A stretch of DNA of 64,000 nucleotides from Candidatus Dojkabacteria bacterium. Its GTDB lineage: Bacteria; Patescibacteriota; Dojkabacteria; SC72; JAHDCA01. The notes beneath the pieces are model-generated. The model did not search any database and had not been told where the DNA came from. It worked only from the letters and a program-made list of their open reading frames with translations. Of this stretch, positions 30,478 through 57,437 are shown one piece after another. A program made the translations under genes and the position numbers. Each line of letters starts with the position of its first letter. The first letter of the stretch is position 1. The DNA is taken from the NCBI GenBank assembly GCA_030583845.1, contig CP129478.1, positions 279,175-343,174 of the forward strand. The letters run 5' to 3'.

Positions 30478-31527
30478 TTAGGCCAGCTCCTCCCAGGACT
30501 TCTGTACTCTCTCGAGCAGCTCGATGTGGTCGAGCATAGCTGAGGTTCCGCGCGCTACAGCAGAGAGTGGCTCGTCTACGATATTTATCGGAAGCTTTAG
30601 CTCCTGCTCCCAAAGCTTATCGAGCCCTCGAATCAGGGCGCCACCACCTGCAATATATGCACCTGAGGTCACCAAGTCTGAGAGTAGCTCCGGAGGCGTC
30701 TCTTCGATGGCGTCCTTCACAGCATCGGTGATCTTGTCCAGCGAATTCATGATAGCCTCACGACATTCGATGCTTGAAAATTCAACTGATTTTGGGAGGC
30801 CAGTCAGCAGGTTGCGACCCTGGATGATCACCTTCTTTTCTTCTTCCTGCGGCACAGCTGAGCCGATCGCTATCTTCACATCTTCGGCGGTTCTCTCCCC
30901 TATCAGCAGGTTATATTTCTGACGCACATAATTGATGATATCCTGATCCATTTCATCACCAGCTACTCTCAAGGTCTTGTCTACGACAATATCGCCAAGC
31001 GAGAGCACTGCAATGTCAGAGGTTCCACCACCAATATCTATAATCATGCTACCCGACGCCTGCTCGATTGGCAGCTCGGCACCGATCGCGGCGGCCATTG
31101 CCTCTTCTACGATGAATACTTGGCGCGCTCCTGCGCTCTTAGCAGCGTCCATGACGGCTTGGCGCTCTACTTCGGTCACCGATGAGGGTACGCCCACAAT
31201 CACACGTGGACGAGGGATTTTGAAGCTTCCAGAGCTGTACCGATGCACCTTACTGATAAAGTAATGAATCATCGCCTGGGTCATATCGAAGTCTGAGATC
31301 ACACCATCTTGCAGGGGCTTAGCGGCAACTACCCGGGCTGGAGTCCTACCGATCATCTGGCGAGCCTCAGCTCCTACGGCAAGCACTCGCTTCGTCTTCT
31401 TATCTATCGCAACCACTGAAGGTTCTGAGATTACGATACCCTTCCCTCTGAGGTACACCAAAGTATTCGCGGTACCGAGATCAATTCCGATATCGTATGT
31501 GACTAGATTCCAAAGTTTGTCGAACAT
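30478..31527 (-). CDS. mreB: Rod shape-determining protein MreB
   Basis: Actin-fold motifs IGIDLGTANTLVY, DIGGGTSD. Confidence 0.9.
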   Translation of the reverse strand: MFDKLWNLVTYDIGIDLGTANTLVYLRGKGIVISEPSVVAIDKKTKRVLAVGAEARQMIGRTPARVVAAKPLQDGVISDFDMTQAMIHYFISKVHRYSSGSFKIPRPRVIVGVPSSVTEVERQAVMDAAKSAGARQVFIVEEAMAAAIGAELPIEQASGSMIIDIGGGTSDIAVLSLGDIVVDKTLRVAGDEMDQDIINYVRQKYNLLIGERTAEDVKIAIGSAVPQEEEKKVIIQGRNLLTGLPKSVEFSSIECREAIMNSLDKITDAVKDAIEETPPELLSDLVTSGAYIAGGGALIRGLDKLWEQELKLPINIVDEPLSAVARGTSAMLDHIELLERVQKSWEELA

Positions 31528-32112: not shown

Positions 32113-32757
32113 ATGGTTCCCGACCTCCAATGGATTTTAGTAGGACTCCCAGCATTCATATTAGCCGGTACAGTTCACGAGTATATGCACGCCTGGACAG
32201 CCAAGAAACTGGGAGATTACACCGCCACTATAGAAGGCAGGCTCACACTGAATCCCTTAGCCCATCTCGACCCGTTCGGCCTGCTACTTATGATAATTGC
32301 CAAGTTCGGCTGGATGAAGCCCGTTCCGGTGAATTCATACAATTTTAAGAATCCTGTTGTAGGAATGGCGATCACAGCACTTGCTGGTCCTGCTTCCAAC
32401 CTGGTAATGGCAACAGCTGCTGCGATTGTATACAACGCTCTCTTTGCACAGCAATTTCTCGCACTACTACCATCATCTAGCCCTGTCCTTGGAGTGCTCA
32501 ACTCTGCACTGATATCATTTATATATGTAAATATTGTGCTGATGCTTTTCAACCTTATTCCAATCCCACCGCTCGATGGTTCAAGGATTGTGAAAGTGAT
32601 AATGCCAAAGAGCCTCCAGTACTACTGGGATCTAATGGAGAACTACTCAGGGATACTGCTGCTATTAATTCTGCTTCCTTTCTCCCCTTTGAGCCAGGTA
32701 ATCGGGACATTTCTGACAAGTGGAATTCTCTACTTTATGAACCTTTTAATCCTGTAA
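32113..32757 (+). CDS. M50-family (site-2 protease-like) zinc metallopeptidase
   Basis: HEYMH HExxH motif in a TM segment and LFNLIPIPPLDGSRIV motif. Confidence 0.7.
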   Translation: MVPDLQWILVGLPAFILAGTVHEYMHAWTAKKLGDYTATIEGRLTLNPLAHLDPFGLLLMIIAKFGWMKPVPVNSYNFKNPVVGMAITALAGPASNLVMATAAAIVYNALFAQQFLALLPSSSPVLGVLNSALISFIYVNIVLMLFNLIPIPPLDGSRIVKVIMPKSLQYYWDLMENYSGILLLLILLPFSPLSQVIGTFLTSGILYFMNLLIL

Positions 32758-33749: not shown

Positions 33750-33826
33750 GCTGGAGTAGCTCAGTTGGTCAGAGCAACGGTTTTGTAAACCGTGGGTCGA
33801 GGGTTCGAATCCCTCCTCCAGCTCCA
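33750..33826 (+). tRNA. tRNA-Thr (anticodon TGT), CCA encoded
   Basis: GCTGGAGTAGCTCAGTTGGTCAGAGCAACGGTTTTGTAAACCGTGGGTCGAGGGTTCGAATCCCTCCTCCAGCTCCA. Confidence 0.85.
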
Positions 33827-34029
33827 TGTTTTAGGAATCTCTCGAACTCAGTCCTCGCTGCGCTGCGGAAGAATACTCCAAATGGCCGCAAAAGCATGCT
33901 TATGGTGAGGCGAGTTCTCAAACTCCCTAAAACATGGCATGATATGAATCACAACCATGAGGTGATGTTAAATAAAGCTTCGCACGCAGCGTAGCGAGTA
34001 TTAGAAGCTTTATTTAACATCACCGAGAA

Positions 34030-34115
34030 GCAGGGGTGGCAGAGCGGTCAAATGCATTGGACTGTAAATCCAACGTCTTCGGACTACACAGGTTCAAATC
34101 CTGTCCCCTGCACCA
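34030..34115 (+). tRNA. tRNA-Tyr (anticodon GTA), long variable arm, CCA encoded
   Basis: GCAGGGGTGGCAGAGCGGTCAAATGCATTGGACTGTAAATCCAACGTCTTCGGACTACACAGGTTCAAATCCTGTCCCCTGCACCA. Confidence 0.85.
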
Positions 34116-34176
34116 TTTCAAAATTTAATAGCTGTAGTTGAAACCAGTCCCAAACTTAAGATTTCAATTTACAGTC

Positions 34177-34737
34177 ATGATTCTTTCAGACAAAACTATC
34201 CGCGACCGCGTCAAGAGCGGCCAATTAGTCCTCGAGCCATTTAATGAGGATCATCTTCAGCCTGCCTCATATGATCTTACTTTGGGAAACAAATTTCTGA
34301 TTTTCGACACTCCGAACAACTTGGTAATTGATGTGAAAGAAGACTCAAGCGCCCTGATGCGCGAGGTGGTCGTAAATGACGGTGATTTCTTCGTGCTGCA
34401 CCCAGGAGAATTTGCCCTCGCAAACATTGCCGAAGTTACAGGTGTAGACGATAAGCATGTTGGTCGACTTGAAGGCAAAAGCTCACTCGGCCGCATCGGG
34501 ATAATTATCCATGCGACCGCAGGCTTCCTCGACCCAGGCAATAAGCTTCGCATGACTCTCGAATTCAGTAATATCGGCACTCTGCCGGTCAAGCTGTATC
34601 CAGGGATGAAAATTGCCCAGATGGCATTTGAGGAGCTCGATCAGCCATGTGAGAAGCCTTATGGCCACAAGTCATTAAACAGCAAATATTATGGCGACAT
34701 GGATGTACAGGCGAGCAAGATGCACAAGAATTTCTAG
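34177..34737 (+). CDS. dcd: dCTP deaminase
   Basis: MILSDKTIRDRVKSGQLVLEPF… and dUTPase-fold motifs. The ORF begins at 34138, but the conserved start is MILSDK. Confidence 0.85.
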   Translation: MILSDKTIRDRVKSGQLVLEPFNEDHLQPASYDLTLGNKFLIFDTPNNLVIDVKEDSSALMREVVVNDGDFFVLHPGEFALANIAEVTGVDDKHVGRLEGKSSLGRIGIIIHATAGFLDPGNKLRMTLEFSNIGTLPVKLYPGMKIAQMAFEELDQPCEKPYGHKSLNSKYYGDMDVQASKMHKNF

Positions 34738-34814
34738 GCCTCTCCTATAGCGGCGTTGACTGAGCACCCTTGCTATATTAAACTCTCGTGCACTGCTGTA
34801 TCATTTGGATATAG

Positions 34815-34891
34815 GCTGGATTAGCTCAGTTGGCCAGAGCGCATCCATGGTAAGGATGAGGTCCCGGGTTCGACCCCCGGATCCAGCTCCA
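34815..34891 (+). tRNA. tRNA-Thr (anticodon GGT), CCA encoded
   Basis: GCTGGATTAGCTCAGTTGGCCAGAGCGCATCCATGGTAAGGATGAGGTCCCGGGTTCGACCCCCGGATCCAGCTCCA. The 3' end lies 4 bp from the stop of the giant minus-strand gene. Confidence 0.8.
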
Positions 34892-34895
34892 TTTA

Positions 34896-37800
34896 TTAAG
34901 CGGTAATTTGTGTTGGAGAAACCGATTGCGGACTATCAACTCTCCTCATCACTCCACTCTCAGTACTCCCGGTCCAATTATCCTCGGGAGGCTGCAGCTT
35001 GAAATTACCCGTTATCAGATCCAATTTCTTATTAATTGTGTACTTTACCTTCCCTTTGACCACTTTATGCTCACCGTTGAATTCCAATCTGTAAATCCCG
35101 GCGAATGAGACAATCCTATACCTTCCCTGCTCGTCAGTAATCACCTTCTGAACAGTTTTATCCGTCCCCTCTTCGATTAAAGTAATCTCCACACCGGCCA
35201 ACCTATTCCCTTTAACAGACCTTACCACACCATATGTATAGCCACTCTTAAGCATGCTCTGAATGATTAAAAGGCTTACAGGTATTAGATATAGCAGGAA
35301 GAATGTGAAGTTCAACCACGATGGAGAGGTAATAAGTACAAGGCCAGAGAGCACCATGCCTAGAACTAATAGTATCCTCAAAACAATAAATAGTGCATTC
35401 ACAAAACCGCTCTGTGCGACATTTACTAATACTGTGCTCCACCCGCTCTCAGCTCTATCTAGCGGCACTGCTCTATCTACCGAGTAATCCTTTTTGTGAC
35501 TAAATACTCCACCAAGGTAAAGGCTTTGATAGATCCCATCTGTAGAGGTCTTGATCGTCCTTGCAGGGAATCGGTAGCCAGTCTTAACTGCATCGATCCT
35601 ATATCTACCATTATCAAGGTATAGGTTATACACACCGTTATATCTGGTCACATCTGTATCAACCAACCTGCCAAAATCGTCGTAAACACGTACTATCACA
35701 TTATTTAGTGGGGCTTTGTCTTGAGCATCGTAGACGATACCGAACGACTCACGTTTGCGCGATTTCAAGAAGTTCAGCAGTGCGATCCAGAACCGCAAGG
35801 CCATGCCAGGGATCTCTGGTATGAAGAGTAATATGTAGCCCGCAGAAGCGGCTGTAGCCACTCCAGAAGTTACCAGATCGTACTCTCCCTCCTCCCACTC
35901 CTCCACCACCCGTCCAGTGGTCTCAACGATAGCTTCCCCAGCCCTACCTATTATCGACTGTGGTTGCGAGGTAGTCTGCCTTCCGCTACCATTATTTGCT
36001 GGTGCGGCTGGCTCCTCTCCGTCGTCTGGTTCTGCGCCTGGTACAGGCTCAGGTTCTGGTTCGGGTTCAGGATCCTGTTCTGGTTCAGGCGGTAAAGGTT
36101 CACTATTAGATATCAGCACCGTCTCTGAATAAACCTCCGAAAGGTTACCAACGGCGTCTCTAAGCCTCACATTTATTGTTACCGAGCCAGTTGCCGTAGT
36201 CCTGTATTCAAGATTTGCTTCGTACTGCTCCCACTCAGTTTCAATAAATTCTTCGCCTTCCGATATCATAATCTCGGCAACGCCAGAACCAGTATCGATC
36301 GCAGGTATCAAAATTACTATATCTCGAATATTACTACTGCCCGAATTGTCTGTAATAAATAGTTCGCCCACAGGAGGGATAGTGTCAACTCCGAAGGCAA
36401 CCTCTCCTTCGTTTGCAGTACTATAAACGACTGGGTAAAGGGTTGGATCATAGCCACCAACGCGCCAGTAGTAAGTAGAATCACCTAGAACTTGCCCTTC
36501 GTTACCTACAGCATATGTGCCGCCTGAAGGAGCCTGACCAACGGTGAAGGTATAACTACCTTGTGCTAGTGGTGCCGATGTGAAATCAACGACAGGGGTT
36601 GAGAAATCTTCGCTGTCATCAATCTGAATTCGATACTGGACTGTGTCCGTACTGTCCTCATCAGATATAGCAAATGCAAATACAGGGGCTGTATTAACGC
36701 TAAACTCTCCATCTATTACGGCACCCTCACCAAGATCGGTCGTCACCGGAATTCCGAAGTTCCAACCAACATTATTACCTAGGTTAGACCCAGTACCAAG
36801 TAGCTGAATAGCAGTCGGACTATTATTTACGCTATCGCTAACATCCACATACTGTATATTCCTTGAACCTTGAGGATCAATGTACCAAGGCTGACCTGGA
36901 GTTACAGAGACCAAATCAATATGATTGTTTTCTGTCCCCGCAATCGTAGTCATACCTTCTACTGTTATCACACTTCCTTCTAACACCTGGAAAGTAGCGA
37001 TGTTTGGCAATACCTCAATATTATTAAACTGATAGTTTCCTGTAAGGATCGTTGCACCACCGTCGAAGATCACTGTACCGTTATTATGATTAAAAATACC
37101 ACTATTGGTTAAGTCACCTGTGACAATAAGCTCATCAGATGGTGCGGTTAATGTACCGTTATAGTTAATGACCAATTGCGAAACCGTTGAAGTAGCAGGT
37201 AGCATCAGGTGACTCGAGACTTCAACCATAACATCACTATTAAAGCTCGTTGACCCACTTAGGTCAGTAACAGTTGTAGTTGAAACAGTAAGGTTGTCAA
37301 TGTTAAGAGAGTCAAATCCTGAGAAAAAGCCACCAGGATCCTGGGATAACTCAGCTAGGTAAAGTGTATCTCCTCCCTTCGTGAGCGTTCCCGTGCCAGT
37401 CAAACTGGCACCGCCCAGGTCATACCTGTACAGATTTATTGCTCCATTTGGAAGTACTGGATCGTTACCGACTGGAAGGCTACAGTTATTTGCGATTCCT
37501 AGAATAGAGTCTAGGCCGAATGTCACATGGTTAAACACGAAGTTTTCACAGTCTATTGGCTCATATGCGGTATTATCAAAGTGGATTGTTCCATTGTTAT
37601 GATCAAATGTTGTCGTGCCAGTCACCTGCATCTGGCCACGTAATGTAGTTGTGCCGGCGGAAGCGATCAGGTTTCCGCCAGAAAAGGTGAAGTCGCCAAA
37701 AGCGGAGTTCTCAGCAAGTGTGAGTGTGCCCGAACTAAAGGTCAGAGTTCCTGCAATGTCCAAACCGCTGTATCCAGATAGGTTTAATGTTGGACCTGAG

Positions 37801-40685
37801 ACTATCATATCCTCCAGTATATATAGACTCTCAAAGCCGCTAAGAACGCCTGTGCTATTTACAGTCAAATCACCCTGAATGGTCAGATCACCACTGCCCG
37901 AGAGAGTCCCCTGCAGTGATATTGCTGCTGTGACGACTGCATCGCCCCCGAGTGGTAATGAACAGCTAGACGCTACGGTTTTCGTACTCGTGTGATTAAA
38001 GCTCACGAGATTGAAAGTTGAATTATTACAATTAATACTGCCTGAGATTCCGTCAAAGGTAAGTACCCCTCCGTTATGATTAAATGATCCAGACCCACTT
38101 ATGGTGAAAGAACCGGAGACGGACATTGTATTTGAAGATGCTGTCATACTCCCACCACTGACTGATACCGAGGTAAGATCAGCAATCGGCGGCAAGGTTA
38201 TGCTTCCAGAGCTTACTGCAACAGTAGTCGCTGCTATACCTGTCATTATCGATGTGTTAAACGTCCCACCTGCGATGGTAATAGAGTTCATCGAACCATT
38301 ACTGAAACCGCTTACCACTCCACCACTATTCACTGTGAGTATCCCCATTGCTGTAAGCGTACCACTCCCACTCACATTACCGTTGACTGTCAAACCGCCG
38401 GAGTTGTTTACCCCAACGGTGGGATTATTTCCTAATGCAATAGTGCAGGTGGAGGATATAGTCTTAACCCCTGTATTGCTAAAAATTACCTGATTAAATG
38501 ACACACTGTTACAGTTGAGTGTTGCAGTGCTGCCATCAAATATTATCGTCCCACTATTGTGGTTGAATACAGCACTACCTGAGATGGTAAGCGCGCCTGC
38601 TAAGTTAAGTGTCGAGGATGAGGCTGTAAAGGTTCCGGCGCTCATGGAAAGAGTTCCATTTATATCTGCAACTGGGGGTAAAGTTACGCTACCTGAAGTC
38701 ATAAGCAGCTGACCTGAGAGGGTCAAACTACTTATCCCGCTGAGATTCAGAGTGGCACCAGATACAGTCAAGCCGCCACCTGAGATGCTAGAGAATCCAC
38801 TAAAACTAGCGCCACTGTTGAGAGTAAATAGTGAACCAGTAGGAAAGGTCAAAGTACCAGTTCCACTTAAGGTACCTGCCACCGTTAGCCCTCCGTTTCC
38901 GAGTAGAGTTGGGTTGTTCCCAAGTGGTATTGTGCAACTTGATGAAATAGTCTTACTGCCACTATTGTTAAACGTCACAAGGTTAAACAGTTTCCCTCCG
39001 CAGGTTACTGTCCCAGAGCTACCCGTAAAGCTTACTGTACCGTTATTGTGATTAAAGGTTGAGCTAGCGTTAAAGTTTATACCTCCAGTAATAGTCATAG
39101 TCCCAGATGGGGCGGTAACATTTGCAGCTGCATTTAGGTTCAGTGTACCGAAACTCGTCCCAGACGGTGGTAACACGATTGTCCCATTAACTATTAGCGA
39201 CGAGGTGGAAACAAACGATGTGTAGCTACTAAAATCGCCGTCTACAACAATTAACGATGCTATGGCAAGTCCACTAAAGCCACTGAAAACTGAACCTGCA
39301 GAAGCAGTCATACTCCCATTGTTTTTAGTAAAAGTTCCAGTGCCACTCAAAGTACCATACAACTGGATAAATCCAGATGCTGTGGTTGTGTAATTGTTTC
39401 CTACTGGTAGGGTACAATCACTGTTGAAAGTCCGGCTTGAGCTACTTGTGATTTGCACAGTGTTGAAGGTTACATTTCCACACGCAATCACAGCTGATGA
39501 CGACCCATCAAAAATTACAATTCCACTGTTGTTATTAAATGTTGCAGCGCTGTCGATTGTTACCGCATTGCCTAGGTTCGTATTACCGGACGAGGCAGTA
39601 AAAATTGCGCCACTATTAAGCGTAACCGTACTATTTGCATCAAAGTTGAAACTGTTCGCACTATATGTACCTGCGGACTGAGTATAGGCACCATTCATAA
39701 TCAGGGCTCGTCCCTGGGTTACTACTCCGCTATACCCAGCATTAATACTTACAGCCGTTATAGTACCACCAAAAGAGCTGTCTACCGTAGAATTTTTACT
39801 GCTTGTACCATCAAATATTACTGAGTCCGCTGAGGTAGGACACACATCGGTGCTCCAGTTAGTACACTCGCTCCAGTTCTCCGTAGCTCCACCACCATCC
39901 CAGGTGTAGGTAGCCGCTTTCGCCGGAGATCTAAAAAAATTAAAAAACTCATACGAGGATAACGATACTAGAACAACCTGCGCACAGAGGAAAAGAGTGA
40001 AGGTGAGGGTGACAGCTAACGCCGGATAGGCTCGAACTCTGGATAGCCTTAGATCGTCTTTGCGCTGAGGGACATTGAGATCCTTGTCGCCCCGGGAGAT
40101 CAGAAAGTAGAGTATCGAGAGAAAGAAGGTCGTTATTACCTGGTAGAAAATCCAATTCGCTCGCAGGATAGCTTTGGAGATAGGACCGTTACCCTTCTGC
40201 GCCATGTCAGCGGACTGATTTGAGAGGTGAGCATACCTGTATGCTTGCGAAGCAATATACTTAACAAATCGGAACCATCTCGAGCCATCCTCCACTCTGC
40301 CCTCTACTAGTGAAGAGATCTCATTGATAAGCCTGTCGAGAAAATCGGAGTCGTCTTTATCCAGTACTACATAATCGCTGGGAAGATCACCCAGTTTCTG
40401 ATTTGCCGCGGTCAGTACTACCACCTTTTTTGATGACTCGTTAAGTACCTTGTTGGTTCTCACATACTCTATTATTTCTAATCCACCATACTGAGGGAGT
40501 GTCGCATCGATTACTATGATCTCTGGATGGACTACATATAGATAGCCGAGACCGTCCATGCCGTTAGAGCATGTATAGATATTTAACTTCTCCTTGCGAA
40601 ATGAGGAGTAGAGCAGGTTTTTCAGTACAAGCCGTATGACAGAATCGTCTTCTATTAATACTATATTTACGGAATCCCTTCCCAT
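34896..40685 (-). CDS. Giant 1929-aa protein: N-terminal CheY-like receiver domain, TM segments, about 1300-aa tandem beta-helix-like repeat region, Pro/Glu linker, further TM segments and two PEGA/CarboxypepD_reg-like domains
   Basis: REC residues in place (IEDD, VIDATLP, VVLTAAN, LDKDD). TM candidates ILRANWIFYQVITTFFLSILYFLI and AYPALAVTLTFTLFLCAQVVLVSL. Six or more repeats of about 150 aa around FNHNNGT[VI]xFDG…C…N…C…LP[LV]GN. EPEPEPEPEP linker. Later TM helices and domains such as VRVYDDFGRLV…GVYNLYL…GRYRIDAVKTGYRF and GVEITLIEEGTDKTVQKVITDEQGRYRI. Confidence 0.6.
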   Translation of the reverse strand: MGRDSVNIVLIEDDSVIRLVLKNLLYSSFRKEKLNIYTCSNGMDGLGYLYVVHPEIIVIDATLPQYGGLEIIEYVRTNKVLNESSKKVVVLTAANQKLGDLPSDYVVLDKDDSDFLDRLINEISSLVEGRVEDGSRWFRFVKYIASQAYRYAHLSNQSADMAQKGNGPISKAILRANWIFYQVITTFFLSILYFLISRGDKDLNVPQRKDDLRLSRVRAYPALAVTLTFTLFLCAQVVLVSLSSYEFFNFFRSPAKAATYTWDGGGATENWSECTNWSTDVCPTSADSVIFDGTSSKNSTVDSSFGGTITAVSINAGYSGVVTQGRALIMNGAYTQSAGTYSANSFNFDANSTVTLNSGAIFTASSGNTNLGNAVTIDSAATFNNNSGIVIFDGSSSAVIACGNVTFNTVQITSSSSRTFNSDCTLPVGNNYTTTASGFIQLYGTLSGTGTFTKNNGSMTASAGSVFSGFSGLAIASLIVVDGDFSSYTSFVSTSSLIVNGTIVLPPSGTSFGTLNLNAAANVTAPSGTMTITGGINFNASSTFNHNNGTVSFTGSSGTVTCGGKLFNLVTFNNSGSKTISSSCTIPLGNNPTLLGNGGLTVAGTLSGTGTLTFPTGSLFTLNSGASFSGFSSISGGGLTVSGATLNLSGISSLTLSGQLLMTSGSVTLPPVADINGTLSMSAGTFTASSSTLNLAGALTISGSAVFNHNSGTIIFDGSTATLNCNSVSFNQVIFSNTGVKTISSTCTIALGNNPTVGVNNSGGLTVNGNVSGSGTLTAMGILTVNSGGVVSGFSNGSMNSITIAGGTFNTSIMTGIAATTVAVSSGSITLPPIADLTSVSVSGGSMTASSNTMSVSGSFTISGSGSFNHNGGVLTFDGISGSINCNNSTFNLVSFNHTSTKTVASSCSLPLGGDAVVTAAISLQGTLSGSGDLTIQGDLTVNSTGVLSGFESLYILEDMIVSGPTLNLSGYSGLDIAGTLTFSSGTLTLAENSAFGDFTFSGGNLIASAGTTTLRGQMQVTGTTTFDHNNGTIHFDNTAYEPIDCENFVFNHVTFGLDSILGIANNCSLPVGNDPVLPNGAINLYRYDLGGASLTGTGTLTKGGDTLYLAELSQDPGGFFSGFDSLNIDNLTVSTTTVTDLSGSTSFNSDVMVEVSSHLMLPATSTVSQLVINYNGTLTAPSDELIVTGDLTNSGIFNHNNGTVIFDGGATILTGNYQFNNIEVLPNIATFQVLEGSVITVEGMTTIAGTENNHIDLVSVTPGQPWYIDPQGSRNIQYVDVSDSVNNSPTAIQLLGTGSNLGNNVGWNFGIPVTTDLGEGAVIDGEFSVNTAPVFAFAISDEDSTDTVQYRIQIDDSEDFSTPVVDFTSAPLAQGSYTFTVGQAPSGGTYAVGNEGQVLGDSTYYWRVGGYDPTLYPVVYSTANEGEVAFGVDTIPPVGELFITDNSGSSNIRDIVILIPAIDTGSGVAEIMISEGEEFIETEWEQYEANLEYRTTATGSVTINVRLRDAVGNLSEVYSETVLISNSEPLPPEPEQDPEPEPEPEPVPGAEPDDGEEPAAPANNGSGRQTTSQPQSIIGRAGEAIVETTGRVVEEWEEGEYDLVTSGVATAASAGYILLFIPEIPGMALRFWIALLNFLKSRKRESFGIVYDAQDKAPLNNVIVRVYDDFGRLVDTDVTRYNGVYNLYLDNGRYRIDAVKTGYRFPARTIKTSTDGIYQSLYLGGVFSHKKDYSVDRAVPLDRAESGWSTVLVNVAQSGFVNALFIVLRILLVLGMVLSGLVLITSPSWLNFTFFLLYLIPVSLLIIQSMLKSGYTYGVVRSVKGNRLAGVEITLIEEGTDKTVQKVITDEQGRYRIVSFAGIYRLEFNGEHKVVKGKVKYTINKKLDLITGNFKLQPPEDNWTGSTESGVMRRVDSPQSVSPTQITA

Positions 40686-40826
40686 TGCATTGTAGGCAGA
40701 TTATTTTGGTTATACAGGATAATGTATTTCCTTGATGAATTCAACGAATCATACAGTATGATCTTGGGCATATTCGCGTACACGACAACCAACTTTATCA
40801 CCACAGATTAAAGCAGAAAAAATTGT

Positions 40827-40855
40827 TTGACCAGCGCCGAAATATCACCTATAAT
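40827..40855 (+). promoter_or_regulatory. Sigma70-like promoter TTGACC-17-TATAAT upstream of rpmG
   Basis: Seen directly. Confidence 0.5.
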
Positions 40856-40886
40856 CACTCACGAATCATTTTTCACGATATTCCCA

Positions 40887-41060
40887 ATGGCTAAGAAAAC
40901 AAAAAAGACCGTTCTCGGCTTGAAATGTGAGGGTTGCGGGAAGAGACATTACACTATCTACAAGCCGAACAACCAGGAAAACAACGAAAAGTTGAAGATT
41001 AAAAAGTATTGTCCTGAAAGCCAGAAACACGAGTGGCAGACAGAGACAAAGCTTAGTTAG
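40887..41060 (+). CDS. rpmG: 50S ribosomal protein L33
   Basis: MAKKTKKTVLGLKCEGCGKRHYTIYKPNN…KYCPESQKH, the bL33 zinc-ribbon pattern. Start at MAKK is preferred over the extended ORF. Confidence 0.8.
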   Translation: MAKKTKKTVLGLKCEGCGKRHYTIYKPNNQENNEKLKIKKYCPESQKHEWQTETKLS

Positions 41061-41155
41061 TCAGTTTGCTCTTTAATTTAAGAACCTAAGCCCCCCCGAC
41101 CACTTGACGGTAATGGTTACACCGTATTTGGTAGAGATTGGGTCAAGTGGTCGGG

Positions 41156-41229
41156 GGGCCCATAGTTTCAATCGGTTAAAACAGCGGTCTCCAAAACCGT
41201 AGTTCTCCGTTCGAGTCGGAGTGGGCCTG
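41156..41229 (+). tRNA. tRNA-Trp (anticodon CCA), discriminator G, no encoded CCA
   Basis: GGGCCCATAGTTTCAATCGGTTAAAACAGCGGTCTCCAAAACCGTAGTTCTCCGTTCGAGTCGGAGTGGGCCTG, preceded by a 17-bp-stem hairpin. Classic position upstream of secE-nusG. Confidence 0.8.
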
Positions 41230-44826: not shown

Positions 44827-45486
44827 ATGATGGATTTCACACAGTGGGTTACAGACATTGGAATGACAGAGCAGATGCTACTTATGCTGCTCTATATTCC
44901 TGTGATCGTCACTCTTATTAACTTCACCAGGTATGTGGTTGGATTTAAGACTTTGGGAATCTATGCCCCAATGGTTCTAGCATATGCCTATATCTTCACC
45001 GGGATACGTTTCGGTTTACTTATCACCGCTGCGGTAATCGCTGGAACTCTCATCACCTACTCTATCTTCAAGAAGGTGAGAATGCACTATATCTCCAGAA
45101 TCTCTGTCAACTATATATTGGTAACCTTTTTCATTATCTTCGTGATTGCTTTTAATGAAATTTCGCCATTCCCCATCACTACTGAGAACCATAACGTTGC
45201 TACAATTCCACCACTTGGTGTGATCTTGATCGTAACTCTTTCTGACTTCTTCATTAAACAGTATGTTAAGAAGGACCTGGGTAGCTCACTTAGAGCTGTG
45301 GCCGAGACTGTAGTCATCGGTATTGCTGGCTGGGCACTCCTAAGACTCCCATTTCTACAGGTATTTATCCTAGATAACCTATGGCTGCAGCCGATCCTCT
45401 TAGGGGTAAATATTGCACTTGGTAAATATACAGGGGTAAGATTTAAAGAGCTCTTCAGATTTCAACGGGTTATTAAAGACGAGTAA
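44827..45486 (+). CDS. Seven-TM integral membrane protein (no catalytic motif), first gene of the ATP-grasp locus
   Basis: 219 aa with about seven hydrophobic helices. Its position immediately upstream of a RimK-like ATP-grasp mirrors the 7TM partner of RLAN-type amidoligase systems (family assignment unverified). Confidence 0.5.
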   Translation: MMDFTQWVTDIGMTEQMLLMLLYIPVIVTLINFTRYVVGFKTLGIYAPMVLAYAYIFTGIRFGLLITAAVIAGTLITYSIFKKVRMHYISRISVNYILVTFFIIFVIAFNEISPFPITTENHNVATIPPLGVILIVTLSDFFIKQYVKKDLGSSLRAVAETVVIGIAGWALLRLPFLQVFILDNLWLQPILLGVNIALGKYTGVRFKELFRFQRVIKDE

Positions 45487-45536
45487 GCGTCTAAAGCATA
45501 TTTAACCTTTTCACTTAATCATTTCCATCTACAAGC

Positions 45537-46997
45537 ATGATAGCCACAGCCATTTTTGGGCAGAAAGAAAAAGAGGTGTTGGGGATCAACAGGCGCAACC
45601 AGAACTATATCCGTGCCTTCAATCCCCCATCAGCTCGTGGTAAGGCCGACAACAAGCTCACGACCAAGAAGATTCTCAATCAGGTTGGCATCAAGACACC
45701 TGAACTGTACAAAGTAATCCGCAGCAAGCAGCAGCTCAAATTCTTCGACTGGAACTCATTGCCCAAGAGCTACGTCATCAAGCCAAACCGCGGCTCTCAA
45801 GGAAGCGGCATCATAGTCTTCTACGGCCAGAAGAAGAATAGCCTCGAATGGATCCGACCGAGCGGCCAGACCATGGATCCACACGAGATCTCCCTGCACA
45901 TGGAGAAGATTCTGGACGGCCGTCTATCTATGGGTAACCGCAAAGATATTGTGATAATAGAGGATAGAATTCGAACCCATAGTGAATTGAAGCGCTACTC
46001 ATACAAGGGTGTTCCCGACATTCGCCTCATCGTCTTCAACAGAGTGCCTATCATGGCCATGGTACGCCTGCCCACCCGTCGCTCCGACGGTAAAGCCAAC
46101 CTACACGCTGGTGCGATCTGTGCTGGTATCGACATAGCATCAGGCGTCACTACAAATGCAATGCACCTTCGCAAGCAGCCGCTGATTGAGGACACATATG
46201 AAGACCTCGAATTTACCCTAGACCAGAATCCTCCCCTACCCCTGAGAGGTATCAAGATCCCATTTTGGGAAGAGATCCTACAGATAGCAGTAAAATGCCA
46301 AGAGGTTAGCGGCCTAGGCTATCTAGGCGTCGACATCGTAATCGACCAAGAGCATGGCCCAATGGTGCTTGAGCTGAACGCACGTCCCGGGCTAGGCATC
46401 CAGACAGCAAACAAGACAGGTCTACGGGCTCGATTAGAGCGAGTCGCTGGGCTGCAAATCAAGAGCAATAAGCATGGAATCCGCGTGGCTAAGAGCCTAT
46501 TCGGTGGTGAGGTCGAGGAAGAGATCGAGGTGATCAGCGGTAAGCGGGTAGTCAATCTTGTAGAGAAGGTAAATGTATACCACTCCGAGCATGCAGACAA
46601 GAAGGAGCTGGTGAGTGCAATGTTGGACACAGGAATTACTACATCTCGAATCGACGAGGGGCTCGCCTCTCGGCTTGGTTTCACAGACGCTCTGAAAAGC
46701 TTTTCCGAGCATAAACCACCCCGTGAGTTCGGTAGTTTCACAGAAGCCCAACAGTACATAGATGCCCATGAGGAAGAGATTACCTCACACCCACAGATTT
46801 TACGTCTCGCTAAGATATCAGAAGATGGCAAAATCAATGTAAAGCCTGTTATTAGCCTTGAAATCAAGGTCGCAGGTGAAAGACGCGCGATGGACTTTGT
46901 TGTAAGCACTCAAAGTGATATGCTCTATCCAGTGCTGATCGGTCGCGCAGAGCTGAAGAGCTACCTGATAGACGCCAGCAAGACCTTCACACGCTAA
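45537..46997 (+). CDS. RimK-like ATP-grasp amidoligase with N-terminal INRRN region and C-terminal retropepsin-like (PF05618-type) peptidase domain
   Basis: N-terminal GINRRNQNYI (the motif of alpha-L-glutamate-ligase-related proteins). Central ATP-grasp elements (…IIEDRI…RLIVFNRVPIMAMVRLP…DGKANLHAGA…LGVDIVID…VLELNARPG). C-terminal …MDFVVSTQSDMLYPVLIGRAELKSYLIDASKTF matches the LLGRraL…VDps signature of the ATP-dependent-zinc-protease/retropepsin-like family. Confidence 0.6.
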   Translation: MIATAIFGQKEKEVLGINRRNQNYIRAFNPPSARGKADNKLTTKKILNQVGIKTPELYKVIRSKQQLKFFDWNSLPKSYVIKPNRGSQGSGIIVFYGQKKNSLEWIRPSGQTMDPHEISLHMEKILDGRLSMGNRKDIVIIEDRIRTHSELKRYSYKGVPDIRLIVFNRVPIMAMVRLPTRRSDGKANLHAGAICAGIDIASGVTTNAMHLRKQPLIEDTYEDLEFTLDQNPPLPLRGIKIPFWEEILQIAVKCQEVSGLGYLGVDIVIDQEHGPMVLELNARPGLGIQTANKTGLRARLERVAGLQIKSNKHGIRVAKSLFGGEVEEEIEVISGKRVVNLVEKVNVYHSEHADKKELVSAMLDTGITTSRIDEGLASRLGFTDALKSFSEHKPPREFGSFTEAQQYIDAHEEEITSHPQILRLAKISEDGKINVKPVISLEIKVAGERRAMDFVVSTQSDMLYPVLIGRAELKSYLIDASKTFTR

Positions 46998-47016
46998 CCT
47001 AACTCTTCATTTGAAT

Positions 47017-48006
47017 ATGAGCCAGTACAATATGGATCCCAAATATCTAGAGCAAGGCGGCAATGTCCACCTCGCTTACTATCTAGAAGCAGCCGACCAG
47101 CTTGGCATCAAATATGATGTCATCATCCGCTCGCTCACAGCCCGCATGGAGAAAGATGGGAAGATCTGGTTTATGATGAACGCCTCGGTTCCTATTAACG
47201 GCGAGCCCAGCTCTACACTATCCCGCATCAAGAGCTATACATACAAAGTTTTCCAGCACGCTGGTATCCCAGTGGCTGAGCAGGCTGAGTTATTCAGTGA
47301 GCAAGATGCATTAGGATTCTTCAACCAGTATAAGAATATCGTCATAAAGCCTGTCCGCAATATCGGAGGCACCGGCATCACTATCCTGCCACAAAGCGAA
47401 GATGAGGTGCGTCAGGCATATGTCCTCGCCCGCGACAAGAATATGGCAAGCACAAAGGTCGAGGCTTTGGCCGAACGATTCGCTATCGGCTCTAATTATA
47501 GACTGTTAGTACTTGGTGATGAGGTAATTGGTGCCGTACATAGAAGGCCAGCCCATGTCACAGGTGATGGAGTCTCGACAGTTGCACAGCTGGTCGAAGC
47601 AAAAAATGCAGCACGCAAGGCAGAGCTGATGAAACCGATCAAGCTTGATGCCCAGAGCATGCTGAAGCTGAGGTCCAACGGATTTACCGAGGGCTATGTG
47701 CCTCAAGCGGGCGAAGAGGTCGAGCTGAGATTCAACTCGAATCTCTCAACTGGAGGCACGACTGAGGAGTGCATGTCGAGAATTCACCCTAGCTATCTGG
47801 ATCTAGCCATACGCGCTACTAAGGAGCTCGGCTTAAAACTAGGCGGCGTAGATCTGATTGCCGAGGATGTGACCACTCCTGGTGCTGCTGCAGTTATTAA
47901 CGAGATAAACACAAATCCAGGGCTAAGGGTGCATTATAAGGTGGATAAGGGCGAGGTTGTGCCAGTTGCTACGAAGATTCTCTCCTACATAGTGGCCAAT
48001 ATATAG
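47017..48006 (+). CDS. Cyanophycin-synthetase-like ATP-grasp domain protein (short, 329 aa)
   Basis: …IVIKPVRNIGGTGITIL…NYRLLVLGDEVIGAVHRRPAHVTGDGVSTVAQLVEAKN…STGGT…GVDLI… resembles the CphA central ATP-grasp block. Confidence 0.6.
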   Translation: MSQYNMDPKYLEQGGNVHLAYYLEAADQLGIKYDVIIRSLTARMEKDGKIWFMMNASVPINGEPSSTLSRIKSYTYKVFQHAGIPVAEQAELFSEQDALGFFNQYKNIVIKPVRNIGGTGITILPQSEDEVRQAYVLARDKNMASTKVEALAERFAIGSNYRLLVLGDEVIGAVHRRPAHVTGDGVSTVAQLVEAKNAARKAELMKPIKLDAQSMLKLRSNGFTEGYVPQAGEEVELRFNSNLSTGGTTEECMSRIHPSYLDLAIRATKELGLKLGGVDLIAEDVTTPGAAAVINEINTNPGLRVHYKVDKGEVVPVATKILSYIVANI

Positions 48007-51701: not shown

Positions 51702-52661
51702 ATGCAGATGCGATACCTATACATAGAAAAGCCCCAAAGAGTCAAAATGTCCGGTGAATACCCGAAGCGTGCTATACGCATAATGGAGGAGCTTGAGAAG
51801 GCCGGTCTTCCTTATGATTTCGCATACAACGATCAGATATCAATTTCATTAAATAAAAGCGAGCTCCAGATTAAAGTTAATGGAAAAGATGTTAGAGAGT
51901 ACACACATATTATCTTTGGTGGTCACCACCTCCATAGCCAACGAGATTACGAGATAAAGAGACTGATCGTCGACGTTGTCGATGAGCATAACCAGGATAG
52001 CGGTAACTCAGAGCCCATAAGAGTTCAGAACTCTCGATTCATTAAACGAATGACATTCTACTCAAAGCTGCACATGGCAAAGATCTGCGCAGACTATGGC
52101 CTACCGTTCCTCGCAACATATTACGACCGCTCGGGTAAGTATCAGCAGTCCAACCTACCCTTCCCCTACCCTCTGATTGCAAAACATGTCGATGGTCGCA
52201 ATGATCTGGTGATGATCGACGGTGAGAAGAAAGTTAAAAAGAATGTATACAAGCTTGATAATGAGAACGGTTGGAAGCAGGACAGGCTGGCCACCAAGAG
52301 CCCAGCGCTCTTCTTCATACAGGAATTCGCCGACTCAGGAGAAGATTTCCGATATTTTGTATCCAAGGGCGAAGTGATAGGAGGCTGGAAGCGTGTCGCG
52401 GGCGACAGCTTTATGACCGTGAACCGCAAAGAGGGTGCCAGATATTTCTATGCCAACGAGCCAGACAAGAAGATTCGAGATATCTGTAAAGCCGCCGCGG
52501 ATGGCTGGGGAGTCGACTTTATGGCATTGGACTTCATGTATAAGGATGGTGAGCCTCACATTTTGGAGTTCAGCATGAACCCTGGCTTCGATGCCTATGA
52601 GAAGAAGTGCGAAGATGGCGAGCCAACAAATATCGCCGAGGCGATCGTTAAATCTTTTTAA
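51702..52661 (+). CDS. RimK-like ATP-grasp ligase (alpha-L-glutamate ligase family)
   Basis: …FFIQEFADSGEDFRYFVSKGEVIGGWKRV…MALDFMYKDGEPHILEFSMNPGF… parallels RimK (…DIRCFVVGD.VVAAMKR…EVNSSPGL). Confidence 0.6.
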   Translation: MQMRYLYIEKPQRVKMSGEYPKRAIRIMEELEKAGLPYDFAYNDQISISLNKSELQIKVNGKDVREYTHIIFGGHHLHSQRDYEIKRLIVDVVDEHNQDSGNSEPIRVQNSRFIKRMTFYSKLHMAKICADYGLPFLATYYDRSGKYQQSNLPFPYPLIAKHVDGRNDLVMIDGEKKVKKNVYKLDNENGWKQDRLATKSPALFFIQEFADSGEDFRYFVSKGEVIGGWKRVAGDSFMTVNRKEGARYFYANEPDKKIRDICKAAADGWGVDFMALDFMYKDGEPHILEFSMNPGFDAYEKKCEDGEPTNIAEAIVKSF

Positions 52662-52709: not shown

Positions 52710-53870
52710 TTATAGCCCTGCTACCTTGAAAGCATCATCAAACATCTTCTTGCTGTAAACAAGCTTTGGCTTAGGGATGAGCCCTTCATCCACCCACTTT
52801 ATCTGGCTAAATCCGATCTTGCCAGCATATAGCTTCTCATAGATTGTAGGATCCTTCTCTACTTTATTCCTGACCCTTCTAAAGCCTTTAAAGTAGTTAT
52901 AGTCCCGCGAGTATATACCCGGCATATTTGTATCCCCTAGCCCACGCTTGACTCGATATACGATGTGGAATGCCTCGATCCTAGGAGCAAAAGCCTGTGT
53001 AGCATTATAAAGCTCACGGAACGACATCTGCTCACCAACCCGGATAGCCCACACCTTGACTGCTCGGCCTACCAGATCTTTCTTCTTCAATACGCCAACC
53101 ATCTCCTCATTATATGTAGCTAATCCCTCCTCTGCCTCAAGATATGAAGGGAGGTTTGAATTTGCCAAGGCAGGCACTTTAGTCTGCTCTCCATTATAGG
53201 CCCTGGCTATATGCGTGAATTCATGCACAATTGTCTTCCGTAGATCTACGGCACTCTTCTCAATCTCTGGATCCATCAATATCTCCTTCTTCTTGATACC
53301 AACCTTCACCCCGTTCTTGTCGATGTTCTTTGACTTGCCTGCTTTCCAATCACTCAGTCCAAGCTCCTCAAGGACGATTGCCATAGTTTCTGCAATCTCT
53401 TCGTACCTCAGCTTTCTCTCAACTTTCTTACTCCCCTCATCCATCAGTTTGTAATTTTTCACCTTGCCCCGTAGCACTCTTGTGGCATTCCTAAAAAGGA
53501 TATCGCCAGGCATTCCAAATCTCTCCTGCGAGAGTCTTGTGAATCTAAAATTCTGGCCGACTGAATGTAGAAGCTCATTGAGCTGGTGCTTCGAATCGAT
53601 CAGTTCTAGGTAGAATTCTGAAATTCGAGGATCTACATCGGTGACAACTTTTACACTACTCAGCTTTGCTAAGATGTCGGCATTTTTATTTTTTACAACT
53701 GTATAAGTGAAAAGCGGGTTGTAGCTGCTGGACTCAAAGAATCTCTTGCGCTCTTCTTTTAGGTTGGTTGGGGTGAACACTAGGGATGTAGGGGCGCGGA
53801 ATTCTTGCAGCAGCTCTGTTAGTTCCTTGAGCTTAATTTCGCTCTTTCCTTTTTTGGCGAATATCGTCAT
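52710..53870 (-). CDS. DUF1704 / QEGLA-motif zincin-like protein
   Basis: HExxH IVHEFTHI and EEGLATY (QEGLA-like) motifs. The ORF's first 23 codons (to 53939) run through the 25-bp palindrome, so the ATG at 53870 is preferred. Confidence 0.5.
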   Translation of the reverse strand: MTIFAKKGKSEIKLKELTELLQEFRAPTSLVFTPTNLKEERKRFFESSSYNPLFTYTVVKNKNADILAKLSSVKVVTDVDPRISEFYLELIDSKHQLNELLHSVGQNFRFTRLSQERFGMPGDILFRNATRVLRGKVKNYKLMDEGSKKVERKLRYEEIAETMAIVLEELGLSDWKAGKSKNIDKNGVKVGIKKKEILMDPEIEKSAVDLRKTIVHEFTHIARAYNGEQTKVPALANSNLPSYLEAEEGLATYNEEMVGVLKKKDLVGRAVKVWAIRVGEQMSFRELYNATQAFAPRIEAFHIVYRVKRGLGDTNMPGIYSRDYNYFKGFRRVRNKVEKDPTIYEKLYAGKIGFSQIKWVDEGLIPKPKLVYSKKMFDDAFKVAGL

Positions 53871-53920
53871 ATGGTTACCATATTCAATCTTACCGCCGAT
53901 TCTAACAGAAATATTAGCCT

Positions 53921-53945
53921 TAACCAAGGGAAGTCGCACTTTGCA
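53921..53945. repeat. 25-bp palindrome copy 3 between the mreB-paralogue stop and the DUF1704 gene start
   Basis: Seen directly. Confidence 0.9.
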
Positions 53946-53971: not shown

Positions 53972-54982
53972 TTATTCTTTCGCGATGCTAGTCACGCCTG
54001 CTGCGAGCAGCTCCAAGGCTGCACCAGTACCCTTTGCCACACAGTACATCGGCTCATCAGCAACGTATGCAGGCACGCCGGTCGCCTTCGTGAATAGCTT
54101 GTCCAGATTCCGAAGCATTGCTGTACCCCCACTCATCGCCATGCCACGATCAATAATATCGGCCGATAGTTCAGGCGGTGTCTTTTCTAACACAGACTTG
54201 ATAGCCTGAATAATTTGCGCCAGCGGCACTCGCAAAGCCTCTGCGACCTCATTCGAATTTATCTCCATCGAGCGAGGCATTCCGCCTGCTGCATCACGAC
54301 CACGAATCTCCATCGATTGTGGATTCTCCACCTTCATCGCTGAGCCAATCTTAATCTTGATCATCTCGGCTGTTTGCTCACCAACCAGCAACCCATGTCG
54401 CTTACGCAGGTATGACACAATAGCATCATTAAGCGCATCTCCTGCGACACGCAAGGATGAGTACTCTACAATTCCACGGAGCGAGATCACGGCAATTTCA
54501 GAGGTACCACCACCCATATTTACGATCATGCTTCCGGTCGAGGTCTCAATTGGCAAGCCGGCGCCAATCGCTGCGAGCAACGGCTCGGGCACCAGATAGA
54601 TCTTACGGGCTCCAGCAGCCGTAGCCGCCTTGAGCACAGCACGCTTCTCTACAGAGGTGATTCCGGCAGGCACGCTAATCATCACATCCGGTTTGAAAAA
54701 TCGAGAAGGACCTCCAAGTGCTTTGTTGAAGAAATACTTAAGCAGAGCTTCGGTCACGCGTGAGTCTGCAATAACACCGCTTCGCATTGGCCTGCGAGCT
54801 ACGATGTCATCGGGAGTCTTGCCGATCATCTCCTTTGCCTCCATCCCTACGGCTAGGACCGACATATTGTTTACATCAAGGGCGACAACTGTGGGCTCTG
54901 TTAGCACCACACCCTTGCCCTCGAGAAATACTATTGAATTGGCTGTTCCTAGGTCGATGCCTAGCTTCTTTCCTCCTATCAT
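53972..54982 (-). CDS. MreB/Mbl-like actin homologue (second copy)
   Basis: LGIDLGTANSIVF…, NMGGGTSE… actin-fold motifs. About 50% identical by eye to the mreB at 30478..31527. Confidence 0.8.
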   Translation of the reverse strand: MIGGKKLGIDLGTANSIVFLEGKGVVLTEPTVVALDVNNMSVLAVGMEAKEMIGKTPDDIVARRPMRSGVIADSRVTEALLKYFFNKALGGPSRFFKPDVMISVPAGITSVEKRAVLKAATAAGARKIYLVPEPLLAAIGAGLPIETSTGSMIVNMGGGTSEIAVISLRGIVEYSSLRVAGDALNDAIVSYLRKRHGLLVGEQTAEMIKIKIGSAMKVENPQSMEIRGRDAAGGMPRSMEINSNEVAEALRVPLAQIIQAIKSVLEKTPPELSADIIDRGMAMSGGTAMLRNLDKLFTKATGVPAYVADEPMYCVAKGTGAALELLAAGVTSIAKE

Positions 54983-57413: not shown

Positions 57414-57437
57414 TTGCACTCTGATATCTTCAGATTG

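Follow-up and report, generated by a model that had tools for sequence, protein, structure and literature searches.

What is a response-regulator receiver (REC) domain, a module known as a switch for transcription factors, enzymes, and motor-binding proteins, doing at the N-terminus of a giant protein that consists largely of a predicted beta-helical, adhesin-like ectodomain? The question is raised by one open reading frame (ORF; 34896..40685, minus strand, ATG start, 1929 aa in the ORF list) in a 64,000-nucleotide stretch of DNA from a Candidatus Dojkabacteria bacterium (assembly GCA_030583845.1, contig CP129478.1, positions 279,175 to 343,174), the whole of which is hereafter called the window. 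CPR (candidate phyla radiation) bacteria, Dojkabacteria among them, carry very small genomes and are believed to live attached to host cells. The NCBI record of an identical protein, WKZ31414.1, on a contig of 1,036,382 bp, is titled 'MAG: response regulator [Candidatus Dojkabacteria bacterium]' (MAG, metagenome-assembled genome), and 'response regulator' is the sole database label on this 1929-aa protein. An original prediction, made from the letters of the window, had proposed that the fusion could couple a phosphorelay to a cell-surface or epibiotic attachment structure within a single polypeptide.

The analysis described here points to a different arrangement. The protein belongs to a sizeable undescribed family of giant Dojkabacteria surface proteins in which the receiver is part of an export leader that is modular and probably cleavable. 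The window protein itself is best read, with a probability of roughly 0.55, as a Sec-exported, C-terminally anchored, beta-helix adhesin-like surface protein whose receiver-bearing leader is probably cleaved and whose receiver plausibly controls or reports export.

A leader module shared by unrelated passengers

The leader module comprises aa 1-257 (39915..40685, minus strand) and contains, in order, the REC domain, an amphipathic helix, a hydrophobic segment (segment 1), a basic loop, a transmembrane (TM) helix (TM2), and an A-K-A junction. A full-length search returned 127 relatives at E<=0.001, with the leader present in 21 of them by N-terminal alignment and a precomputed Pfam REC assignment on 17 of 120 relatives among the matches listed. 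A HMMER profile of the 21 N-terminal modules was then run against 1.84 billion representative proteins and retrieved 180 clusters at E<=1e-30. In the best 150 of these 180 clusters, the match is N-terminal in all, beginning no later than residue ~60, and nearly always spans REC through TM2; the proteins are 143-4258 aa in length, most of the short ones being cut by contig ends.

The sequence following the leader is far from uniform. For the 118 members of sufficient length, BLAST with single linkage sorts the 300 residues after the junction into 10 unrelated classes (56, 29, 13, 7, 3, 3, 3, 2, 1, and 1 members), with the TWDGGG class of the window protein being the second largest and other classes carrying Beta_helix, DUF2341 with LamG, Big_1, or CSLREA-like sequences. 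Because it is joined to 10 unrelated passenger classes, the leader is, as judged from these alignments, a self-contained module combined with many exported passengers. Its conservation in at least 180 clusters, where it heads at least 10 kinds of exported giant protein, suggests a lineage-wide mechanism linking phospho-signalling or receiver docking to adhesin export.

A complete stand-alone leader of 276 aa (P0123) was also found, at positions 79-909 of locus L015. It contains REC, segment 1, the loop, TM2, an extra TM helix, and a KRRNYE tail; the extra TM helix stands in place of the A-x-A site, which is missing. Two genes come next downstream, one coding for a polytopic membrane protein and the other MurJ-like.

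The junction between leader and passenger

The leader ends in a signal-peptidase-I-type site, A255-K256-A257 / A258 (39912..39923, minus strand), with TYTWDGGG following directly. A257 is invariant in the alignment of 21 leader modules. A small-x-small motif is found at the module end in 126 of 127 members, with Ala at position -1 in 117 of the 126 (93%) and Val, Ile, or Ala at position -3 in 101, and the site lies a median of 36 aa (interquartile range 36-37) after P221, whatever passenger follows.

Homologues of the same ectodomain that have no REC domain (n=73) begin with an ordinary N-terminal Sec signal peptide, which ends in [A/V/T]-x-A right before 'A[ST]xTWDGGG'. The predicted cleavage site of these TWDGGG proteins falls in the same register as the leader junction, with Ala at -1 in 66 of 73. 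In the window protein, the place of the Sec signal peptide is taken by TM2 together with the AKA site. Because the signal peptide of the REC-less paralogues ends at the same residue, the module is read as a receiver-bearing export leader. The sequence features of a Sec signal with a signal peptidase I site are all present, namely a basic loop with seven Lys and Arg residues, the TM2 core, and A255-K256-A257 followed by A258.

From these junction data, together with a C-terminal anchor behind a stalk rich in Glu and Pro (described below), a signal peptidase I cut after A257 would be the more likely fate of the protein, at roughly even-to-better odds. An anchor and stalk of this kind appear to match the arrangement usual among monoderm surface proteins that span the wall and have a free distal N-terminus.

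The exported passenger and its anchor

The passenger opens with a right-handed beta-helix ectodomain (aa 258-1318; 36732..39914, minus strand) made up of an N-cap, TWDGGG...NWS..C..NW...CP, and repeats R1-R6 (aa 343-503, 504-666, 667-827, 828-986, 987-1157, and 1158-1318). The AlphaFold2 (AF2) model of the first 415 residues of the ectodomain, with pLDDT 96.3 and pTM 0.90, shows ~44 short strands arranged as a beta-helix and confirms the fold that had been guessed; the fold resembles that of secreted beta-helix adhesins. Tandem repeats thus exist as predicted, but instead of six or more units of ~150 aa there are five complete units and one degenerate unit without a Cys pair, at a period of ~160 aa (anchor positions aa 383, 544, 707, 868, 1027, and 1198). 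The Cys pairs (aa 402/424, 562/584, 725/747, 886/908, and 1046/1068) are spaced 22 residues apart and are invariant in 26 homologues. The next region, aa 1319-1530 (36096..36731, minus strand), probably forms two Ig/FN3-like beta-sandwich domains, a presumed and weak assignment for which the sole match is an OmpL47-type one over the second domain (aa 1460-1523; NCBIfam NF047446, 26.4 bits, below the cut-off of 40).

The EPEPEPEP linker noted in the original prediction starts at aa 1531. This low-complexity stretch (aa 1531-1600; 35886..36095, minus strand) contains PEPEPEPEP and is 21% Glu and 19% Pro. Further TM helices follow it, as had also been predicted, in hydrophobic stretches at aa 1604-1636 and 1755-1812. 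The first, TM3 (aa 1604-1636; 35778..35876, minus strand), appears as Kyte-Doolittle (KD) peaks, a hydrophobic helix plus a further short stretch of hydrophobic residues, ahead of KSRKRE; the like pattern 'TM...KK(R)KYWG' was found in 10 homologues. Beyond it lie a first CarboxypepD_reg-like domain (aa ~1645-1735; 35481..35753, minus strand), with Pfam SdrD_B and CarboxypepD_reg stretches on aa 1655-1706, then TM4 and TM5 (aa 1755-1785 and 1790-1812; 35250..35423, minus strand; KD 2.77 and 2.11), which are conserved in the C-terminal alignment, and a second CarboxypepD_reg-like domain (aa ~1815-1895; 35001..35243, minus strand), with the best PF13620 stretch on aa 1819-1870.

A Pfam scan of the full 1929-aa protein gave only weak related hits for domains of the CarboxypepD_reg type, and the last 345 aa scanned alone scored 49.5 bits for PF13620, in two stretches, against a cut-off of 32.3. 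The two domains that had been described as CarboxypepD_reg/PEGA-like therefore stand as CarboxypepD_reg, which fits better, but not as PEGA proper, which is unlisted for the window protein; among homologous C-termini, PF13620 is found in five of five and PEGA in three of five. A separate 552-aa protein of the window (57414-59072, plus strand) has a bona fide PEGA domain, at 57.8 bits. The K/R clusters after TM3 (KSRKRE here, 'KKRKYWG' in relatives) suggest that both CarboxypepD_reg domains would be cytoplasmic. In the closest orthologue (P0002), the C-terminal part is the most conserved, at 84% identity, followed by the leader at 65% and the beta-helix at 52%. Homologues end in a single TM helix and then a K/R tail, and three family members (P0029, P0032, and P0059) are without any C-terminal anchor.

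Topology of the leader

That the passenger is extracytoplasmic is indicated by the signal peptides of the REC-less homologues, the conserved Cys pairs, the beta-helix fold, and the C-terminal TM and K/R-tail anchors of homologues. This placement constrains the leader. In the AF2 model of the module, three long helices follow REC: an amphipathic helix at aa 136-164, a helix at aa 168-195 with segment 1, and one at aa 205-252 running from the basic juxtamembrane region through TM2. The amphipathic linker helix (40194..40280, minus strand) has a mean hydrophobicity of 0.01 and a moment of 0.33. Two hydrophobic segments after REC, as predicted, were found at aa 175-197 and 221-250. Segment 1 (aa 175-197; 40095..40163, minus strand) has a KD value of 1.88, and TM2 (aa 221-250; 39936..40025, minus strand), the signal-anchor or signal-peptide core with Q236 in mid-membrane, one of 2.30. 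Between them lies the conserved and putatively cytoplasmic basic loop (aa 198-220; 40026..40094, minus strand), ending in R216-x3-Y220-P221.

Residue conservation in the leader was scored over 144 family members. Position 182 in segment 1 is Gln or Glu in 121 of 144 (84%); R216 is kept in 136 (94%), Y220 in 132 (92%), and P221 in 135 (94%), and Q236 in 111 (77%), with Gln, Asn, or Glu at this position in 87%.

With a cytoplasmic REC domain, two full spans would place the passenger inside the cell, contradicted by the same signal peptides, Cys pairs, and anchors. An extracytoplasmic passenger thus requires either that segment 1 does not span the membrane or that REC lies outside. An additional span at aa 136-164 would also have restored the parity, and was rejected because this helix is too polar, with several Lys, Arg, Gln, and His residues. 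Charge and hydrophobicity statistics probably favor a non-spanning segment 1, as a re-entrant or interfacial helix, over an external REC. In 87 members, the 15 residues preceding segment 1 contain on average 3.06 Lys and Arg against 0.86 Asp and Glu, and the loop following it averages 5.8 Lys and Arg, both flanks of segment 1 being net positive, whereas the 25 residues following TM2 contain 1.64 Lys and Arg against 2.41 Asp and Glu. Segment 1 falls below the Kyte-Doolittle TM threshold of 1.6 in 35 of 127 members (28%), and its core includes a charged residue in 71 (56%); TM2 falls below this threshold in none of the 127, its median uncharged run being 29 aa. Segment 1 would then be membrane-embedded without crossing; REC, the amphipathic helix, and the basic loop would be cytoplasmic, with TM2 oriented N-in/C-out.

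The receiver domain

The REC domain occupies aa 6-125 (40311..40670, minus strand), with phospho-acceptor D60 plus E12/D13, T92, and K110. It matches Pfam PF00072 over aa 8-96 at 33.3 bits (gathering score 30.2), and the AF2 model, built on 21 homologues (pLDDT 83.7, pTM 0.76), shows a (beta-alpha)5, CheY-like fold. The hallmark residues read from the sequence beforehand—E12-D13-D14, D60 in VIDATLP, T92 in VVLTAAN, and K110 in VLDKDD—are all present.

Over the 144 leader members, D60 is kept in 99%, K110 in 95%, Asp or Glu at position 12 in 96%, and Asp at position 13 in 83%, and P64 is conserved in 100%. The Thr/Ser switch position, T92 in the window protein, is Thr or Ser in only 37 of 144 (26%), and the aromatic switch position (Lys minus 3) is Val in the window protein by alignment. 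Since the pocket residues are retained in a family otherwise only ~30% identical, the Mg2+- and phosphoryl-binding pocket appears to be under selection, and the canonical switch does not. Sequence, fold, and pocket thus place the domain in PF00072, of which it is an atypical member at its switch residues.

Fate of the leader and role of the receiver

The preferred reading can be set out as a sequence of steps. The leader would target the passenger to Sec, TM2 would insert N-in/C-out and drive translocation of the ~1340-residue passenger, and signal peptidase I would then probably cut after Ala257. The product inside would be a membrane-tethered receiver stub, with segment 1 dipping into the membrane without crossing it, and the product outside an adhesin held by its C-terminal membrane segments behind the E/P-rich stalk. 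The phosphorylation state of the receiver, with an unlinked kinase or a small-molecule donor as phosphodonor, would plausibly control when or where the passenger is exported, or report export in its timing, place, or number. Such a regulatory receiver is plausible because the phosphorylation pocket is kept. REC and adhesin may accordingly be separated after export: of the original idea of a receiver coupled to the surface in one permanent polypeptide, the single fused gene holds, but the modular leader, the peptidase-type site, and the many unrelated passengers speak against permanence.

Several observations weigh against this reading. A small-x-small site finder would hit by chance in most sequences, and the weight is carried by three features: the spacing is fixed, Ala stands at -1 in 93%, and the site coincides with the module boundary. 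The uncharged run of TM2, at ~29 residues, is longer than a typical signal-peptide core and argues against cleavage because long uncharged cores favor an uncleaved signal anchor in other systems. R216, Y220, P221, and Q236 are far more conserved than expected of an ordinary, disposable signal peptide, which indicates that TM2 does more than targeting. Segment 1 is a borderline TM helix on the Eisenberg scale (H 0.64), with a hydrophobic moment (muH) of 0.22, and its putative non-spanning placement draws on charge and hydrophobicity statistics. With Thr or Ser at the switch position in only 26% of the family, canonical phospho-switching is doubtful. Finally, the search for a cognate histidine kinase or Hpt protein that had been recommended gave none (HisKA, HATPase_c, and Hpt) among the ORFs scanned across the 64-kb window, and none in the neighbourhoods of the five homologous loci L003, L004, L012, L013, and L014.

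A further step beyond the preferred reading can be suggested tentatively. The cleavable leader may itself be a signalling device particular to CPR episymbionts, with the stubs, one left by each exported giant adhesin, letting the cell count, position, or gate adhesin deployment through phosphorylation or intramembrane proteolysis. If true, this would be categorically new, defining a class of response regulators in which secretion of the attached cargo takes the part of the 'output domain'. The mechanism is directly testable, since a leader of such small size and modular build could be transferred to reporter cargo in a heterologous host.

The principal alternative, which is considered unlikely, is an uncleaved, two-ended transmembrane signalling protein in which REC stays joined to the ectodomain through TM2. 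Signalling could run inside-out, with phosphorylation-driven REC dimerisation clustering or re-orienting the adhesin, or outside-in, with host binding by the adhesin altering REC phosphorylation. The long TM2 run and the conserved Q236 and Y220-P221 are as expected for a functional transmembrane helix; moreover, in the window protein and nine relatives, the C-terminal membrane segments and CarboxypepD_reg domains that follow the K/R clusters could adjoin REC in the cytoplasm, and the ~70-residue E/P linker would be long enough for both ends of the protein to reach the membrane. However, the [V/I/A]-x-A register that the junction shares with the predicted cleavage site of the REC-less paralogues is not what this account would lead one to expect, and specific conformational coupling of one receiver to each of 10 unrelated ectodomain classes is hard to imagine. 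A rigid beta-helix would be a poor transmitter of conformational change, and P0029, P0032, and P0059 have no C-terminal anchor.

Less probable still is a pseudo-receiver, a REC fold that goes without phosphorylation in vivo and is used in the cytoplasm for dimerisation, docking, or localisation, for instance by holding the nascent giant protein at the Sec machinery or the host-contact pole. The FrzS receiver works without phosphotransfer. For the leader family, such a role would be in keeping with the replacement of the Thr/Ser switch by His, Tyr, Asn, Val, or Gln in 74% of the 144 members, the non-aromatic residue at Lys minus 3, a PF00072 score barely above threshold, and the lack of a kinase gene in the six neighbourhoods. 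Set against these are the acidic positions 12/13, D60, and K110, kept despite ~30% overall identity, and the fact that orphan receivers with distant kinases are common.

Comparison with known systems

A literature search found no description of surface proteins whose export leader incorporates a receiver; one preprint only mentions CheY-like domains in giant actinobacterial proteins.

Compared with the stand-alone receivers CheY, DivK, and FrzS, the receiver of the window protein lies ahead of an export signal and is tethered to the membrane through two helices, one hydrophobic and one TM. In addition, most of the leader family has lost the Thr/Ser and aromatic switch residues, and no partner kinase is linked. 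PorX, the response regulator of type IX secretion, is a soluble protein with a PglZ/phosphodiesterase output domain and works on the secretion machine in trans, whereas the leader receiver is fused in cis to each cargo.

As a beta-helix adhesin, the passenger is similar to EtpA, FHA, Hap, pertactin, Ag43, and the tapirins. Unlike these two-partner secretion (TPS) and autotransporter passengers and the monoderm tapirins, the window protein has a ~160-aa super-repeat with a conserved Cys pair and is anchored by C-terminal TM helices. No TPS secretion domain or C-terminal beta-barrel was found in it by Pfam and NCBIfam, the C-terminus being composed of alpha-helical TM segments and CarboxypepD_reg domains rather than a barrel, and it is therefore not a member of the TPS or autotransporter families. 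The organism, as a CPR bacterium, presumably lacks an outer membrane.

Extended signal peptides—the ESPR of autotransporters and the long leaders of serine-rich repeat adhesins—are extensions of ~25-90 residues that are unstructured. The leader module is comparable to these as an N-terminal extension ahead of a hydrophobic core that appears to be a conserved unit across different passengers, but the extension here runs to ~220 residues, with a folded signalling domain and another hydrophobic helix inside it.

Regulated proteolysis is how RsgI-type and other membrane anti-sigma factors, which are type II membrane signalling proteins, are processed. By analogy, the window protein would share with the RsgI type a cytoplasmic signalling domain at the N-terminus, a single TM helix running N-in/C-out, a large binding domain on the extracellular side, and a proteolytic site just outside the membrane. 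It differs in having a receiver in place of an anti-sigma domain, in that the enzyme making the outer cut would be signal peptidase, and in the extra hydrophobic helix that would hold its stub at the membrane. M50 proteases of the site-2 type are encoded in the window by two Peptidase_M50 genes, one full-length (16214-17386, minus strand, 390 aa) and one short (32113-32757, plus strand, 214 aa). Both were weighed as processors of the leader stub, and both are unlinked to the homologues in other genomes. The nearby M50 protease was rejected as a dedicated partner, since no such gene is conserved beside the homologues at L003, L004, L012, L013, and L014, and its proximity is regarded as coincidence.

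Integrity and setting of the gene

The oddity of the architecture raises the question of whether two genes, one for REC and one for the adhesin, have been joined by mis-assembly or a collapsed repeat, or whether the true start is internal. Beyond that a priori oddity and an interrupted frame at one related locus (L009), nothing favors such an artefact, and it is refuted for practical purposes: the ORF is intact and encodes an identical protein on three independently assembled contigs (the NCBI MAG contig and two Logan assemblies), the fused architecture is common to 180 diverged clusters, the repeats are too diverged for collapse, and no Met codon that could start a conventional signal peptide occurs between aa 198 and 222. 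The 1929-aa single ORF and the fusion of REC to the repeat array in one gene are thus real, as originally described. By contrast, the 450-bp-periodic DNA repeats said to make the locus assembly-sensitive were not borne out. Tandem Repeats Finder (TRF) detected no long-period DNA array in the giant gene and only a 6/18/24-nt microrepeat at 36038-36089, in the linker-coding stretch, and no exact DNA repeat of at least 16 nt was found in the ORF. The repeat units of the beta-helix share 38-51% identity in DNA and 20-47% in protein, and the DNA repeats are therefore not assembly-sensitive; a tandem DNA repeat or assembly collapse is ruled out.

The coordinates agree with the described placement of the gene between a tRNA cluster and rpmG. 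Four bp separate its stop from tRNA-Thr(GGT) (34815-34891, plus strand), which is preceded by tRNA-Thr(TGT), tRNA-Tyr, and dcd; on the opposite flank lies rpmG (40827-41060), followed by tRNA-Trp, secE, nusG, and rplKAJL. Within this region (window 33750-41229), dcd sits inserted in the tRNA cluster, and the giant gene fills the slot between tRNA-Thr(GGT) and rpmG-tRNA-Trp-secE-nusG-rplKAJL.

Contigs of species-representative genomes were scanned with a 5-sequence alignment, which finds only members with the 'IDATLPKY' motif, and the seven loci obtained are accordingly not a census. The loci in these genomes include three from Dojkabacteria and two labelled 'uncultured Candidatus Saccharibacteria', one of the latter with an interrupted frame: at L009 (3722-4260), in a Saccharibacteria-labelled MAG, a leader-type ORF is stopped after 179 codons and may represent a pseudogene or a sequencing error. 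Tandem paralogues of leader genes are frequent at the loci examined. At L004 (1-17906), on another Dojkabacteria-type contig, three tandem paralogues, one REC-less and two with REC, lie directly upstream of rplJ-rplL. Giant DUF2341/LamG proteins, of domain types that also occur as passengers, are encoded next to REC-leader genes at L003 (7476-9737) and L004 (18767-24007).

Other genes of the window

Elsewhere in the window, an 879-aa ORF (11618-14257, minus strand) without a Pfam family at E<=1e-4 lies amid housekeeping genes. Ribosomal protein S2 (19055-20263, minus strand, 402 aa) has a C-terminal extension at aa 343-401 that matches the RNA polymerase alpha C-terminal domain and a helix-hairpin-helix, an unusual fusion. 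Two MreB paralogues are encoded within the 64 kb (30478-31527 and 53972-54982, both minus strand), the first accompanied by mreC, a 162-aa ORF, and a PBP2-type transpeptidase. A cluster at 44827-48006 and 51702-52661 (plus strand) and 52710-53939 (minus strand) encodes a 7TM_transglut protein, an ATPgrasp_ST protein, and RimK-like ATP-grasp proteins; a MATCAP-like carboxypeptidase is encoded close by, and the set resembles a system for peptide ligation or modification.

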